A stretch of 64,000 nt of DNA, taken from an uncultured Verrucomicrobia subdivision 3 bacterium. GTDB lineage: Bacteria > Verrucomicrobiota > Verrucomicrobiia > Limisphaerales > UBA11358. The notes beneath the pieces are model-generated. The model was not told where the DNA came from, searched no databases, and saw nothing but the letters and a program-made list of their open reading frames with translations. The stretch covers positions 9,472-73,471 of the forward strand of contig CAIXFY010000009.1 of the NCBI GenBank assembly GCA_903918885.1, read 5' to 3'. The translations under genes were made by a program, and so were the position numbers. This document shows, piece by piece, positions 55,844 to 59,010 of this stretch (the first letter of the stretch is position 1; each line of letters opens with the position of its first letter).

Positions 55844-56341
55844 TCAATGACTGATGTTTCCAGTGATATGCGAGTGAGTCGATAAAAGTGCAAATGCTCC
55901 TATGCTACAGCCGACGATAAAACAAATAAAAGACATCCACGGAAGTCGACGAACCCATTTCTCACCATCAACTTTTTTGTTGTCGGCTTCGATAATTTCC
56001 TCCCAAGACTTTTTGTCAGTGAAGAATTCATTTGTAAGCAACTTCCACTGATCAAAAAGACCTCTCAAGTGGTAGAATTCTCTTGCTCTGGCGAAGCCGA
56101 CCAATATGACTCCCAACACAAAAAATCCGAGAGCCAATTTTGCTTCACAGCTAATTCTATCTACTCCGACCGTTCCGATGAATGCCAGAGTTGTGGCTGC
56201 GCCTCCAGAATTTGTAAGGAAGAGATATTGGAAAGCCGCTTTTCCAGAATCTTGTTGCAATTCTAAAAGCTGTTTCCAGCGGGTATCGGTATAATCAATC
56301 CGTAATTTTTTTAGAGGTTCTTGTGTTTCTGAAAATTTCAT
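55844..56341 (-). CDS. Hypothetical membrane protein (low-GC gene)
   Basis: 165 aa with three hydrophobic segments (GGAATTLAFIGTV; LALGFFVLGVILVGFA; MSFICFIVGCSIGAFALL). AT-rich composition. Confidence 0.5.
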   Translation of the reverse strand: MKFSETQEPLKKLRIDYTDTRWKQLLELQQDSGKAAFQYLFLTNSGGAATTLAFIGTVGVDRISCEAKLALGFFVLGVILVGFARAREFYHLRGLFDQWKLLTNEFFTDKKSWEEIIEADNKKVDGEKWVRRLPWMSFICFIVGCSIGAFALLSTHSHITGNISH

Positions 56342-56383
56342 GCGGAGTTATGATTTTAGGACGCGCTGATCAAATAATTGAAC

Positions 56384-56866
56384 TTAGTTTGCATACCTAA
56401 TGACTGCGGCTTTTGTAATCTTGTTATTGATCGGATCGCTTGAAGAACCGTAATCCTGATAGGTTGTGTTTCCGTGATAGTAAGCTGTATTGCCGATTAC
56501 GGATGCGCTTCCGGTCGTCGTGGCCGTGCCAATGCTTCCAGAATTGTAGAAGCCAACCAGCTCGCTATGTGCGTCAAGGATGATTATTCCATCGCCTCCA
56601 GCTTCTTTTGCTTTCTTTACCAATGCGTTTTCGTAACCAGCCATGCCAAGTGGGGTTTGACGACGTGAATCATCAATGATTCCAATAACCTTGTATTTCC
56701 GAGGAGGTGAACCATTGTTCCAAATGTCTATGCCATTGATTGTCTTTTTTGTCCCACCCGTCCCTTCAACCACGCCGCCGCCTTCATATGCGGAATAGTT
56801 TGTAGAGGCGCAGCCCGCAAAAAAAACTGAAAAGATGACCAGCAGAATGTGAATTACATTTTTCAT
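56384..56866 (-). CDS. Hypothetical lipoprotein (low-GC gene)
   Basis: Signal peptide with lipobox (LLVIFSVFFAGC). Mature part has no confidently recognised domain. Confidence 0.65.
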   Translation of the reverse strand: MKNVIHILLVIFSVFFAGCASTNYSAYEGGGVVEGTGGTKKTINGIDIWNNGSPPRKYKVIGIIDDSRRQTPLGMAGYENALVKKAKEAGGDGIIILDAHSELVGFYNSGSIGTATTTGSASVIGNTAYYHGNTTYQDYGSSSDPINNKITKAAVIRYAN

Positions 56867-56909: not shown

Positions 56910-57040
56910 TTACCGCATCACCGCCAGCGCCTTCTCAATCCTTGCCAGCACGCGTTCTTTGCCGAGGGCTTGGAGTAGGTGGTAGAGGCTCGGGCCGGAG
57001 GTTTTGCCGGTCACGACCAGCCGGCATCGGTTTGAACTGC
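56910..57040 (-). pseudogene. Displaced/duplicated 3' end of a gltX gene
   Basis: The minus strand encodes ..CRLVVTGKTSGPSLYHLLQALGKERVLARIEKALAVMR*, compared with the intact GltX C-terminus ..CRLAVTGKTSGPSLYHLLEVLGKERVMARIEKALATIG*. About 80-85% nt identity includes a 33-nt perfect block. The frame is broken upstream. Confidence 0.75.
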
Positions 57041-57155
57041 TTTTCAATTTCATCGCCCAAGACCGAAAGCGCCGGGCGCGGGCGCGGATCGTTGATAATG
57101 CGTTGCCATTTCAAATCGCCATCCGTTTCGGGAAGTTGCATGGCGGAGGACATTT

Positions 57156-57425
57156 TCAAGCCAAAGCTTTTGCGCGGCGCAAACCCGGCGCTTCAGGCAG
57201 GCCTTGAATCAATCCCTCGACGCTCAAATGGTAGTCCAAGTCCGGCCATTCGATGCCGTAGCCCGCGCCGATGGGCTGGCAGTTGTTCCGCTCGGCGTCG
57301 GTCGCGTGCAGCAGCGTGGGATAATACGCCAGCGGCACGGTCAGCACGCGGCCATCCATCAGCTCGACGGTCAGCGTGTCGGCGGAGGTTTCGATGCGTT
57401 TGATTTTAAGGTCTGAAAAACTCAT
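57156..57425 (-). CDS. DUF2442-family protein (putative antitoxin-like partner)
   Basis: ..LTVELMDGRVLTVPLAYYPTLLHATDAERNNCQPIGAGYGIEWPDLDYHLSVEGL matches the DUF2442 pattern as I recall it. Overlaps the upstream gene by 20 nt. Confidence 0.7.
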   Translation of the reverse strand: MSFSDLKIKRIETSADTLTVELMDGRVLTVPLAYYPTLLHATDAERNNCQPIGAGYGIEWPDLDYHLSVEGLIQGLPEAPGLRRAKALA

Positions 57426-57642
57426 TCCATTTCTCCAGTATCAGGGTTTCGTGTTCTTCAATGATTCCGGCAATCTCCCGTAAATCATGCGGTCTGAATC
57501 CGTGATTGACCGCGAGTCGCGCGGGCGACATCCAAAATTTGGCATCAAACCCGCCTTTTGCAACGTGAATGTGCGGCGGCTCACTGCCTTCTTCGGCATA
57601 GAAATAAAACTGGTAGCCGTTAATTCTTAAAATCGTGGGCAT
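57406..57642 (-). CDS. DUF4160-family protein (putative toxin-like partner)
   Basis: MPTILRINGYQFYFYAEEGSEPPHIHVAKGG..AKFW is the typical DUF4160 N-terminus. Usually paired with DUF2442. Confidence 0.75.
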   Translation of the reverse strand: MPTILRINGYQFYFYAEEGSEPPHIHVAKGGFDAKFWMSPARLAVNHGFRPHDLREIAGIIEEHETLILEKWNEFFRP

Positions 57643-57660
57643 GACGGATTGTTGGCAATT

Positions 57661-59010
57661 TCATCCAATGGTGGCAAGCGCCTTCTCAATCCGCGCCATG
57701 ACGCGTTCTTTGCCAAGCACTTCCAGCAGGTGATAGAGGCTCGGGCCGGAGGTTTTGCCGGTCACGGCCAAACGGCAGGGATGCACGAGCACACCGGCTT
57801 TCACACCCAGCATCTTGGCGGTTTCCTTGAGCGTGGCTTCCAGCGTCTCGGCGTTGAAAGCCGGGGCGTGCGCAAAAGCGTCTCGGAGCTTTTCCAAGCG
57901 CGGCTTGGCTTCCGGCACGAAATCTTTCTTCGCCGCTTCAGCGTCGTAAACTATCTCGTCGGTGAAATAAAAGCCGGCGTAGGCGGGCAGTTCGGCAAAG
58001 GTTTTGATCTTGCCGCGACAGGTGTCGAGCGCGGCTTTGACGTAGTGAACGTCCAGCTTGTTCGTATCAATGCCGGCTTTGGCGAACGCGTGCACGCCGA
58101 GTTCGTAGAAACGGTCGCCAGCGAGTTCGCGGCAGTATTCGCCCTGCAACCACGTGAGCTTTTCGTAATCGAACTTGGCGTTGTGCCGGAGAATCTGCGG
58201 CAGGTCAAAGCGTTCGACGACATCGGCGAGCGGCATTTTTTCCAGATTGTCCTTGGGCGACCAGCCGAGGAGGCAGAGATAATTGTTCACGGCTTCGGCC
58301 AGAAAACCGTCGTCGAGATAGCTGGTGAGGGATGCGCCTTTGTCGCGCTTGCTCATCTTGGAACCGTCGGCATTCAGGATGAGTGGAATGTGCGCATACT
58401 TGGGCGGCTCCACGCCGAACGCGCGGAAGAGCGCGATGTGCTTGGCGGTGTTGCTCAAATGATCTTCGCCGCGAATGACGTGCGTGATGCCCATTTCCAA
58501 ATCGTCCACGACGTTCACGAAATGAAACACCGGCTGGCCGTCGCTGCGGACAAGCACCCAATCGGGATCAGCCTCCTCGCGGTCGGTGAGCGGACGGAGA
58601 ACATCGCCGACAACGAGGTCAGGAATGAGTATCGGCTCGCGCGTCATCCGGAATTTAATCGTGCCGTCGGCGTGTTTGTAGGCGAGGTTGCGCGACATGA
58701 GCGCTTCGATGCGGCGCAGATAATTTTCTTTGCGCTGGGATTGGAAATACGGGCCGCGATCGCCTTTGCTCGTGCCGGTGGCGTCGCCGGTGAGCGGACC
58801 TTCGTCCCAATCCAGCCCGAGCCAGCGCAGGCCGTTGAGGATGACGTCCACGGCTTCCTGCGAATTGCGCGCAGCGTCGGTGTCTTCGATGCGGAGCACG
58901 AACGTGCCGCCGGTGTGGCGAGCGTAAAGCCAGTTGAACAAAGCGGTGCGCGCACCACCAATGTGCAGATAGCCGGTGGGTGAAGGAGCAAAGCGGACGC
59001 GTGGTTTCAT
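57661..59010 (-). CDS. gltX: Glutamate--tRNA ligase
   Basis: RFAPSPTGYLHIGGARTALFNW (HIGH) and KMSKR motifs; 449 aa. Confidence 0.95.
   Translation of the reverse strand: MKPRVRFAPSPTGYLHIGGARTALFNWLYARHTGGTFVLRIEDTDAARNSQEAVDVILNGLRWLGLDWDEGPLTGDATGTSKGDRGPYFQSQRKENYLRRIEALMSRNLAYKHADGTIKFRMTREPILIPDLVVGDVLRPLTDREEADPDWVLVRSDGQPVFHFVNVVDDLEMGITHVIRGEDHLSNTAKHIALFRAFGVEPPKYAHIPLILNADGSKMSKRDKGASLTSYLDDGFLAEAVNNYLCLLGWSPKDNLEKMPLADVVERFDLPQILRHNAKFDYEKLTWLQGEYCRELAGDRFYELGVHAFAKAGIDTNKLDVHYVKAALDTCRGKIKTFAELPAYAGFYFTDEIVYDAEAAKKDFVPEAKPRLEKLRDAFAHAPAFNAETLEATLKETAKMLGVKAGVLVHPCRLAVTGKTSGPSLYHLLEVLGKERVMARIEKALATIG

Follow-up and report, generated by a model that had tools for sequence, protein, structure and literature searches.

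In an integron, small promoter-poor cassettes stand in a row at a single place in the chromosome, and toxin-antitoxin genes are common among them. In Neisseria, minimal mobile elements exchange cassettes by homologous recombination through conserved flanking genes. Other elements use the 3' end of a gene as their target, such as phage 21, which integrates in the 3' end of icd. SGI1 does so in the 3' end of trmE (PMC8409611). Closest to the locus described here are restriction-modification units with long target duplication (Nobusato et al. 2000, Gene 259:99; Furuta, Abe and Kobayashi 2010, PMC2853133). The mechanism behind these duplications has been left open, with double-strand breaks being favoured (PMC2853133).

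The locus lies in the window, i.e. the whole stretch of 64,000 nucleotides that was analysed, which is part of an 82-kb contig in a genome of 2.46 Mb (called G000 here). It shares several properties with long target duplication. In both cases a small "addictive" unit without a mobility gene is bracketed by direct repeats of more than 30 bp and of variable length, which are copies of the target and often overlap the 3' end of a neighbouring gene, and in both cases the units are recognised by comparison with genomes that do not have them. On balance we lean towards reading the locus as an integrase-free cassette insertion of this kind, moved by homologous or homology-facilitated recombination.

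Anatomy of the locus

The features of the locus are listed in Table 1. Orthologues of GltX, the glutamyl-tRNA synthetase, occur in 39 of 41 relatives at 70-96% identity, and in the window the 3' end of the gene is present twice. Positions 56923-57026 are a copy of 57674-57777 (104 nt, 86% identity, spacing 751), and the Pfam matches together with the repeat comparison identify both copies as the gltX 3' end, that is, as target-derived repeats of more than 30 bp. An earlier note on this DNA had described such a repeat about 750 bp downstream, containing a perfect 33-nt block, and this holds up: the block is exact in both places, the second copy lying within the remnant at 56983-57015. Among relatives, it is the best conserved part of the duplicated segment. 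There is no third copy of the 33-mer in the 2.46-Mb genome, even with up to three mismatches allowed. The remnant reads through VTGKTSGPSLYHLLQALGKERVLARIEKALAVMR to a stop codon and matches the end of the Anticodon_2 profile (E 1.4e-9), in agreement with the GltX-like C-terminus that the note had ascribed to it. Coordinates and Pfam also agree with an overlapping DUF4160/DUF2442 pair behind gltX, the first ATG of the DUF4160 gene following the gltX stop after 18 nt. What needs correction is the statement that only these two genes lie between the copies, since a fragment of another antitoxin gene is encoded there as well. Scans for tRNA genes and Rfam families found none in the region. Beyond the remnant there is a low-GC islet of two genes.

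Table 1. Features of the gltX locus, with positions in the window
Feature	Position	Strand	Evidence
gltX (glutamyl-tRNA synthetase), intact, 449 aa	57661..59010	-	ORF; Pfam tRNA-synt_1c E 2e-73, Anticodon_2 E 1e-32
33-nt block, copy within gltX; likely crossover zone	57734..57766	-	exact repeat, 2 genomic copies
gltX tail (ending in LLEVLGKERVMARIEKALATIG and stop), probably imported with the cassette	57661..57733	-	tail affinities
Spacer and tail end with promoter-like site	57643..57677	-	-35 TTGCCA 57677-57672, -10 AACAAT 57653-57648
dhiT-like toxin gene (DUF4160), predicted, 78 aa	57406..57642	-	PF13711, E 4.7e-19, 68.8 bits (cut-off 23)
dhiA-like antitoxin gene (DUF2442), predicted, 89 aa	57156..57425	-	PF10387, E 6.5e-18
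Fragment (aa 30-69) of a gene for an 82-aa antitoxin-like protein	57016..57135	-	BLASTP 70% identity, E 5e-20
gltX 3' remnant, from Cys412; probably the native tail at 56910-56982	56910..57026	-	ORF, Pfam, repeat, tail affinities

The two genes of the pair share 20 nt (57406-57425), and the toxin gene comes first. Both the order and the overlap are those of DhiTA, where a DUF4160 toxin precedes a DUF2442 antitoxin and the proteins are about 80-90 aa long. The DhiT family is a proven toxin in Dickeya (dadantii 3937) and in Thermus (a plasmid module), as stated in parts of PMC8198452 and PMC12724237. With the NCBIfam model toxin_DhiT (NF048015) the window toxin scores 33.5 bits, which is far under the 100-bit cut-off and places it in the DhiT superfamily, not with the equivalogs. 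The toxin of the predicted toxin-antitoxin pair in the window is probably toxic as well.

The spacer in front of the pair and the adjoining end of gltX contain a promoter-like site with 9 of 12 consensus matches. It is a weak one, because 0.8 such matches are expected by chance. The same segment forms the conserved left flank of the DhiTA cassette: a gltX tail ending in IG before the stop, together with the spacer AATTGCCAACAATCC, is found again to the left of DhiTA in other genomes. The gltX tail and spacer probably act as a promoter for the cassette.

The gene from which the antitoxin fragment derives is known in complete form. Intact pairs of the 82-aa antitoxin and a ParE-like toxin are found at gltX in G284, G380, G058, L073 and L141, and the toxin partner matches ParE_like with E 6e-7; in G000 this partner was not found. 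The composite of DhiTA and antitoxin fragment also occurs in L081/G423, L146 and L161. L146, a moderately close metagenome relative with 88% GltX identity, has the whole composite.

The gltX end as an insertion site

Within the genus, 5/25 genomes have a cassette that is flanked by the gltX stop on one side and by a gltX-end copy on the other. In an even sample of the order Limisphaerales the number is 12 of 357, and these genomes belong to nine families. In this order of soil Verrucomicrobia the gltX end is a recurrent insertion site, and the locus in the window is no one-off. The cargo is diverse and includes a ParE pair, a ParE_like pair, DUF6883 with a partner, a single 79-aa gene, REP-associated tyrosine transposases, an HNH gene and DhiTA, the inserts being 0.2-4 kb long. 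Cassettes can also be arranged in rows. G018 and G424 have two remnants each, the row in G423 spans 4 kb, and the longest row, in G058, has five remnants besides gltX's own end. Seen from the side of the cargo, 42 of 73 close metagenome relatives of DhiTA adjoin gltX or a gltX remnant, with a flanking repeat in 33 of these 42. The starts of many remnants fall sharply on either Val401 ('GTGAAAGCC') or Cys412 ('TGCCGGCTGG'), with varied types of cargo; these starts could reflect a defined recombination site, not shared ancestry of the frame. An assembly artefact was rejected as an explanation, since many independent assemblies show the pattern, some of them in contigs of 0.15-1.2 Mb.

The remaining 20 of the 25 genus genomes have neither cassette nor remnant behind gltX, and the closest relative (GltX 96% identical) is among them. 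One of the 20 (G024) has just a stray antitoxin fragment in this place. In G008, G003, G010, G001 and others there is a single gltX end without a cassette, followed by downstream flanks that are not syntenic with the window. The genes downstream in the window were common to none of eight relatives, and no empty site was found that aligns on both sides.

Co-travel and horizontal movement

Comparison of carrier loci shows which parts of the locus belong together. When G007 is compared with L064, the 3' part of gltX has an identity of 0.64-0.80. The value jumps to 0.84-0.96 at the start of the DUF4160 gene, reaches 1.00 in the remnant's first 100 nt and falls off sharply about 40 nt past its stop. 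Over 12 complete loci, the downstream copy of the gltX end correlates with the toxin-antitoxin genes with r 0.85 and with the host gene body with r 0.62, and for the upstream copy the correlation with the host is r 0.87. Where two hosts are less than 75% identical, mean identity is 0.75 for the upstream copy, 0.88 for the toxin-antitoxin genes and 0.90 for the downstream copy. The downstream copy travels with the cassette, and it can be of a foreign gltX type. As an example, the two copies in G007 are 72% identical to each other, and its remnant matches gltX from other lineages at 92-94% identity.

The cassette as a whole is incongruent with gltX in both directions. At fourfold-degenerate sites, L064 and L066 have an identity of 0.84 in gltX versus 0.69 in the toxin-antitoxin genes, and for L064 and L074 the values are 0.65 and 0.82. 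A DUF2442 protein that is 92% identical occurs in another family, where GltX is just 77.5% identical. These comparisons indicate that the cassette moves horizontally. Crossover points differ among genomes, lying at about aa 414-424 (the 33-nt block) in the window and at about aa 440 in G007. Past the block, the gltX of the four closest relatives is nearer to the remnant tail (0.85-0.95) than to the working tail (0.79-0.85), and in distant relatives the order is reversed. In the window, the displaced remnant is probably the native tail and the tail of the working gltX an imported one, a distinction based on 61 nt. The suggestion in the earlier note that the incoming DNA restores the reading frame of gltX fits with this difference in affinity.

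A quite different history would be that of an old pair inherited vertically beside gltX, or of the last piece of a decayed island with the repeat as a relic of its attachment site. The decayed fragment of a second cassette, the low-GC islet past the remnant and the presence of the whole composite in L146 could be taken in this way. However, most members of the genus, including the closest, have no cassette, the trees of cassette and host gene are incongruent, and about 400 genomes yielded no integrase-bearing island at gltX, with inserts of only 0.2-4 kb. We regard this history as highly improbable. Of the two proposals made in the earlier note, a small mobile toxin-antitoxin cassette agrees with this incongruence and with the cassette-free relatives. 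The other, the last remnant of a decayed island, does not agree with relatives that carry small cassettes and no islands, although a decayed fragment of a second cassette is indeed present here. Vertical conservation of the pair at gltX, which the note had named as evidence against insertion, was not seen, and the gltX loci without cassette for which it had advised a search exist in most of the genus.

Other target genes and possible enzymes

Genes other than gltX are also found with a duplicated end that brackets a cassette. DhiTA occurs behind argA, where 92 nt are duplicated and the remnant is followed by another, divergent DhiTA, behind a radical-SAM gene, with a 39-nt duplication of that gene's end, and behind further targets; at the new targets there is no trace of gltX sequence. 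The search for other copies that had been advised thus gave none of the 33-mer within the genome and several of DhiTA elsewhere. G000 itself has at least seven more small cassettes, each lying between 57-88-nt copies of a gene end or of sequence next to it; in five cases the gene is a named one (rplQ, purC, pheS, scpB and a PEP-CTERM protein gene). Among the genes they carry are DUF433/DUF5615, DUF2283, DUF4258/MqsA-like, HicB-like, DUF559 and Y1_Tnp genes. Among ten bracketed cassettes in G000, no shared motif was found at the boundaries of the duplications.

The genome-wide search for recombinases covered the tyrosine type (PF00589), and the ORFs of cassettes and rows were compared with all of Pfam. 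The window insert holds just the DhiTA pair and the gene fragment, with no mobile-element gene, and the 82-kb contig has no match to Phage_integrase (PF00589), which bears out the earlier remark that there is no integrase. No recombinase was found in or beside any array examined, including rows on contigs of 150 kb to 1.2 Mb. Eight tyrosine-recombinase genes are present elsewhere in G000.

It is conceivable that one such enzyme, encoded elsewhere, recognises the gltX 3' segment in trans, the cassettes being integrase-less hitchhikers comparable to cis-mobilisable elements or integron cassettes. This would suit the eight genes, the rows in which each cassette ends in the same kind of repeat, and the two sharp 5' boundaries of remnants that are common to different cargo. 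It is at odds with crossover positions that vary between events, with the same cassette at argA and the radical-SAM gene and others at rplQ, purC, pheS and scpB without a boundary motif, and with the fact that no recombinase adjoins any row, even on the 150-kb to 1.2-Mb contigs; we consider it quite unlikely. For the same kind of reasons, the site-specific insertion into the gltX 3' end proposed earlier stands in one half only: the geometry is that of an insertion, whereas variable crossovers, the missing boundary motif, the other targets and the missing recombinase speak against site specificity.

REP-associated transposases were also considered as the inserting enzyme and rejected, because they are themselves cargo between gltX copies and are missing from most rows, and because to our knowledge HUH Y1 enzymes make no target duplication. 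With regard to vectors, plasmid and phage collections contain nothing that matches the 0.9-kb region, and no relative of the DUF2442 protein was found in IMG/VR. Homologues of ComEC and DprA are present in G000; this says little, because the same families match in 10-11 of 14 control genomes.

Duplication of the target in place is another option. Here the cassette would come in through a double-strand break with staggered or resected ends, or when replication switches its template, and the target would be copied on both sides without any homology tag. Such a process would account for the sharp-edged duplications of 34-108 nt with 92-100% identity at several unrelated targets and for DhiTA at new targets without gltX sequence, and it is the mechanism favoured for restriction-modification genes (PMC2853133). 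It does not account for the two gltX copies of different lineages (in G007 with 72% mutual identity, the remnant being 92-94% identical to others), for the co-inheritance of the downstream copy with the cassette, or for the differing phylogenetic affinity of the two tails in the window. As an explanation of this locus we think it unlikely.

A proposed mechanism

In the recombination model that we prefer, the mobile unit would be a DhiTA-type addiction module travelling with pieces of gltX. On its far side it would carry a copy of the conserved gltX 3' end, and on its near side a short gltX tail and a spacer that probably holds a promoter. Before it entered an ancestor of G000, the unit would already have contained the dead fragment of a second antitoxin gene. 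It would then have recombined with the resident gltX in or beside the 33-nt block, leaving a working gltX that is native up to the block and continues with the imported tail, and pushing the native tail 751 nt downstream, beyond the cassette. The recombining enzymes would be those of the host, the element having none of its own. This could take place either by RecA-type crossing-over between gltX-like segments, with a circle or a linear piece with two arms, or by homology-facilitated illegitimate recombination. Both the dependence on host recombination and the route of DNA entry are what we infer. Because every related genome has the conserved gltX end, such a tag would admit varied cassettes and rows would build up, and the toxin-antitoxin function would make insertions hard to lose. 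The homology arms are about 100-145 nt long and 72-92% identical; RecA works poorly on such short and diverged arms, and only a high tolerance of mismatches would keep the efficiency from being low. It is worth noting that the model covers the spread of an existing tag, not the first duplication at a new target, and in-place duplication may make the first tag.

A wider reading, which we offer tentatively and as possible more than probable, is that housekeeping-gene ends (gltX above all, but also argA, pheS, purC, rplQ and scpB) are integron-like, recombinase-free capture platforms in Limisphaerales. A copy of a gene end would turn any small unit into a self-targeting cassette that enters the orthologous sites of relatives by host recombination, stacks up and swaps its cargo, with the tail maybe doubling as a promoter. 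If this is true, toxin-antitoxin pairs, REP-associated transposases and nucleases would together make up a class of enzyme-free mobile elements that has not been described before. By what means toxin-antitoxin modules in chromosomes spread when they lack a mobility gene is an old open question, and long target duplication around restriction-modification genes has been without a mechanism since 2000. The loci described here offer a natural series with one target, many cargos and rows, in which donor and recipient tags can be distinguished and crossovers mapped, so that a mechanism becomes testable. They also suggest a simple design for enzyme-free targeted gene delivery to conserved sites. For annotation, they account for short "pseudo-gltX" ORFs and for fused DUF2442-GltX tails in Limisphaerales assemblies.

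Comparison with known systems

A literature search for gltX as an attachment site returned nothing specific, and one for toxin-antitoxin cassettes flanked by duplicated housekeeping-gene ends returned nothing relevant. For DhiTA, chromosomal insertion with a duplicated gene end, as seen here, is not described in those parts of PMC8198452 and PMC12724237 that are used above. The loci differ from long target duplication in their cargo, which consists of toxin-antitoxin pairs and small genes in place of restriction-modification genes, in the reuse of one gene end across an order with rows being built, and in the distal repeat, which comes from the previous host and is not copied from the new target. 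As with SGI1 and phage 21, the incoming DNA brings a new 3' end that keeps the target gene whole, and the displaced native end forms the direct repeat. Those elements have their own integrase and a fixed core, whereas at gltX no integrase is present, crossover points vary and inserts measure 0.2-1 kb. With minimal mobile elements, the cassettes would share exchange by homologous recombination via conserved sequence; the difference is that only one conserved flank is chromosomal here, the second homology arm being on the cassette itself. Integrons are similar in that promoter-poor small cassettes, many of them with toxin-antitoxin genes, line up at a single place in the chromosome. However, IntI, attI and attC were not seen at gltX, neither the window nor any row examined has a recombinase beside this gene, and the repeats between the cassettes are gltX coding sequence.

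The cassette behind gltX

The duplicated gltX 3' end, the perfect 33-nt block and the overlapping DUF4160/DUF2442 pair 18 nt behind the gltX stop, all described in the earlier note, are borne out. The direct repeat is 104 nt long at 86% identity, and its downstream copy, the remnant, still encodes the 37 C-terminal residues of the synthetase and matches the end of the Anticodon_2 profile. The 33-nt block is exact in both copies, and a search of the whole 2.46-Mb genome with up to three mismatches gave no third site. For the pair, coordinates and Pfam matches agree; the two genes overlap by 20 nt. They are not the only content between the copies, as had been claimed, since a fragment of an antitoxin gene is also present. 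Elsewhere, the 82-aa protein that it resembles is partnered by an 89-aa ParE-like toxin (Pfam ParE_like, E 6e-7; other genomes), which was sought in the window's genome and not found.

[quoted passage not shown] Two papers report that DhiTA function was demonstrated in Dickeya dadantii and E. coli (PMC8198452) and that DhiTA stabilises plasmids in Thermus (PMC12724237). Judged by sequence, the window toxin is a distant member of the superfamily, as its match to the NCBIfam DhiT model is weak (33.5 bits, with a cut-off of 100).

Directly behind the remnant there is a two-gene islet of low GC, with a lipoprotein-like and a membrane-protein gene that have no family match; the islet is absent in all relatives examined. 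Just past the window end a second GltX-like sequence is found, probably a paralogous synthetase or GluQ-like gene.

Coordinates of the features discussed (bare positions are in the window; C, contigs of the window's own genome; L, loci or contigs compared; G, related genomes)
Feature	Location	Strand	Remarks
gltX	59010-57661	minus	449-aa class I synthetase with anticodon-binding domain
DUF4160 gene	57642-57406	minus	78 aa; Pfam E 4.7e-19
DUF2442 gene	57425-57156	minus	89 aa; Pfam E 6.5e-18
Antitoxin fragment	57135-57016	minus	residues 30-69 of 82-aa antitoxin-like protein; 70% identity, E 5e-20
Direct repeat	57674-57777; 56923-57026		
Candidate promoter	-35, 57677-57672; -10, 57653-57648		weak match
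Two-gene islet	55844-56866		GC 0.40-0.46 (surroundings 0.56-0.63)
Second GltX-like sequence	C9:74064-74870		33% identity over 276 aa; ~5.6 kb from gltX
gltX, DhiTA, remnant, start of second DhiTA	L151 1090-1792		second DhiTA 80% identical, at contig end
DUF2442 gene running into remnant	L035 3831-4246 (G007)		also L063, L068
Middle part of 82-aa antitoxin	L037 8931-9047 (G024); L045 (G413)		
REP-associated transposase cargo	L033 3637-4101; L034 2380-2853; L062 224-685; L096 10877-11338; L097 7625-8086		
argA, DhiTA, argA remnant, second DhiTA	L142 1146-3676		
rplQ end + terminator duplicated	C2 7797-8541		cargo DUF433 / DUF5615
purC end duplicated	C56 18035-18674		cargo DUF2283
scpB start duplicated	C58 3404-4158		cargo DUF4258 / MqsA-like
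pheS end duplicated	C66 41255-41886		95% identical, ends exactly at stop; cargo HicB-like
PEP-CTERM protein gene end + terminator duplicated	C85 11566-12179		cargo DUF2283 + partner
Nucleotidyltransferase gene start duplicated	C30 998-1921		cargo DUF559 nuclease
Another gene start duplicated	C30 102410-103494		cargo IS200-like transposase
Unnamed stretch duplicated	C75 4255-4963		

Origin of the two gltX ends

The related genome G007 carries the same pair and a remnant. When it is compared with another such locus, L064, identity is 0.64-0.80 over the last 450 nt of gltX, rises to 0.84-0.96 exactly at the start of DUF4160, is complete (1.00) in the opening 100 nt of the remnant and collapses ~40 nt past its stop. 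The G007 remnant belongs to a gltX type ('..TGNPHGPSLYHLLEV..') known from intact genes of other lineages, to which it is 92-94% identical, versus 72% to G007's own gene end. Across 12 complete loci, the downstream copy varies in identity more closely with the toxin-antitoxin genes (r 0.85) than with the host gene body (r 0.62), and the upstream copy tracks the host (r 0.87). By these comparisons the downstream copy demonstrably travels with the cassette from host to host. The different origins of the two copies make a purely local "target duplication" a poor fit at gltX. At fourfold-degenerate sites gltX and the pair are incongruent: gltX is the more similar of the two in one comparison (0.84 vs 0.69 for L064-L066) and the less similar in another (0.65 vs 0.82 for L064-L074), each gap being about 2.5-3 standard errors, which points to horizontal movement of the cassette.

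In the window, the four closest relatives match the remnant tail past the 33-nt block at identities of 0.85, 0.87, 0.95 and 0.90, and the working gene's tail at 0.79, 0.80, 0.84 and 0.85; against distant relatives the order is inverted. Other genomes, too, have the '..ALATIG*' tail of the working gene and the spacer AATTGCCAACAATCC on the left side of DhiTA. Since the two tails behave differently past the 33-nt block, the exchange likely took place in or beside it, so that gltX would end in imported sequence with its native end displaced, much as the earlier note had proposed; with 61 nt as the basis, this assignment is likely rather than certain. The exchange in G007 lies near residue 440, which means that crossover points are not fixed but vary between genomes. 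A promoter-like site falls within the imported tail and spacer, and as the match is weak, a role of the gltX tail as promoter of the cassette is only a suggestion.

The gltX end as a recurrent site

Among the 25 genomes of the genus, the cassette is missing and the gltX end is present once in the closest, G008 (GltX 96% identical), and in most others. The exceptions are four: G007, described above; G012, which has the pair on a contig that ends ahead of any remnant position; G004, with a REP-associated transposase and a remnant; and G018, where gltX is followed by an antitoxin and ParE toxin and a remnant, and these in turn by a REP-associated (IS200-like) transposase with a further remnant behind it. 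Extra gltX-end copies occur in 12 of 357 genomes sampled evenly from the order Limisphaerales, in nine families, a count that leaves out one weak match resembling a paralogue. The inserts are 0.2-0.8 kb long and carry a 62-aa antitoxin with a ParE toxin, the 82-aa antitoxin with a ParE-like toxin, a DUF6883 protein with an 83-aa partner, a single 79-aa gene, or a DUF2442 that is 92% identical to the window's in a host family whose GltX is just 77.5% identical.

The 79-aa gene ('MFTAxQLKERM..') has no Pfam or NCBIfam match and forms a single-gene cassette that follows gltX in six or more genomes (L044, L046, L048, L043, L049, L071) from at least three families; the stop of this gene falls within the codon (GTG/ATG-AAA) that opens the gltX copy behind it. 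REP-associated or IS200-like tyrosine transposase genes, commonly viewed as single domesticated genes, are cargo between gltX-end copies in five genomes and are 84-94% identical across families; the orientation of one such family relative to gltX is not the same in G004 and G316.

Several cassettes can be stacked behind one gltX. In G058, five remnants are found in addition to the end of the gene itself, on three contigs, and the rows in G424 and G423 span 1.5 kb of a 149-kb contig and 4 kb of a 1.2-Mb contig. No recombinase lies within these three rows, where the sole enzymes are REP-associated transposases and an HNH nuclease.

Other copies of the pair were sought on metagenome contigs, where 42 of 73 close relatives of the window toxin sit directly behind gltX or a gltX remnant (flanking repeat in 33, none in five, flanks too short in four). 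The same composite of pair, antitoxin fragment and remnant from Cys412 is present in L146 and L161 (metagenome) and in G423; similarity between the window and L146 ends at the stop codon of the remnant. The second DhiTA in L151 may be a tandem amplification via the cassette's flanking repeats. Three loci have a DUF2442 gene that has lost its stop and continues in frame into the remnant, yielding a DUF2442-GltX C-terminal fusion ORF (..ENGRIDSRVKAGVLIHPTRLAATG..). In further genomes, a piece from the middle of the 82-aa antitoxin ('..WQRII.DPRPRPAL..LGDEIE..') is present behind gltX, as an orphan or joined to the N-terminus of another antitoxin, and would be either a recombination-prone joint or a piece retained for a reason.

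Targets other than gltX

The 3' end of argA is another such site: DhiTA also occurs behind this gene, whose last 92 nt are repeated at 92% identity. At one argA locus (L142), a second, divergent pair (~40% identical to the first) begins 8 nt past the stop of the argA remnant. Behind a 409-aa radical-SAM gene the last 39 nt of the gene are repeated, further targets have repeats of 34-285 nt, and about 15 loci have no repeat. Self-comparison of the window's genome gave at least seven further small cassettes between 57-88-nt copies of gene ends or neighbouring sequence. Eight loci outside the window are tabulated; cargo, mostly of toxin-antitoxin families, is seen in seven, and five of the duplicated pieces come from nameable genes. 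A shared motif was sought at the duplication boundaries of these cassettes, and none was found.

How the cassettes may be inserted

The earlier note read the locus as a site-specific insertion, possibly the remnant of a decayed island. Its geometry and mobility hold; site-specific integration and the decayed island do not. Insertion by a dedicated recombinase fits poorly, because the targets are many and unrelated, the crossovers vary, a shared core is absent and no such enzyme is nearby: the genome has eight tyrosine recombinases, none on the window's contig, in keeping with the integrase noted as missing.

Insertion by host recombination is the best fit and moderately probable. The conserved gene-end piece carried by the cassette would act as a homology tag, and host recombination would place the cassette at the orthologous site, either from a circle by a single crossover or from a linear piece by two crossovers, with gltX as the left arm and the carried copy as the right arm. 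Both routes would give a native head with an imported tail, the cargo, and an imported head with a native tail, which is the structure seen; repeated entry would build rows. At a new gene, the structure could arise de novo by homology-facilitated illegitimate recombination that is anchored in the gene and makes its illegitimate join within the recipient's gene end; this would also account for similarity often ending at the stop codon. ComEC and DprA homologues are present in the genome, and control genomes commonly have them too.

Relation to known systems

Among described phenomena, the closest concerns restriction-modification units and is called "insertion with long target duplication" (Nobusato et al. 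2000; Furuta et al. 2010, PMC2853133). Both involve small addictive units without mobility genes and long direct repeats of the target, variable in length and often at gene 3' ends. The cargo differs, being toxin-antitoxin pairs and other small genes instead of restriction-modification units. Unlike in the restriction-modification case, one conserved gene end is here reused across an order, building rows, and the distal repeat is, by sequence comparison, demonstrably carried from host to host.
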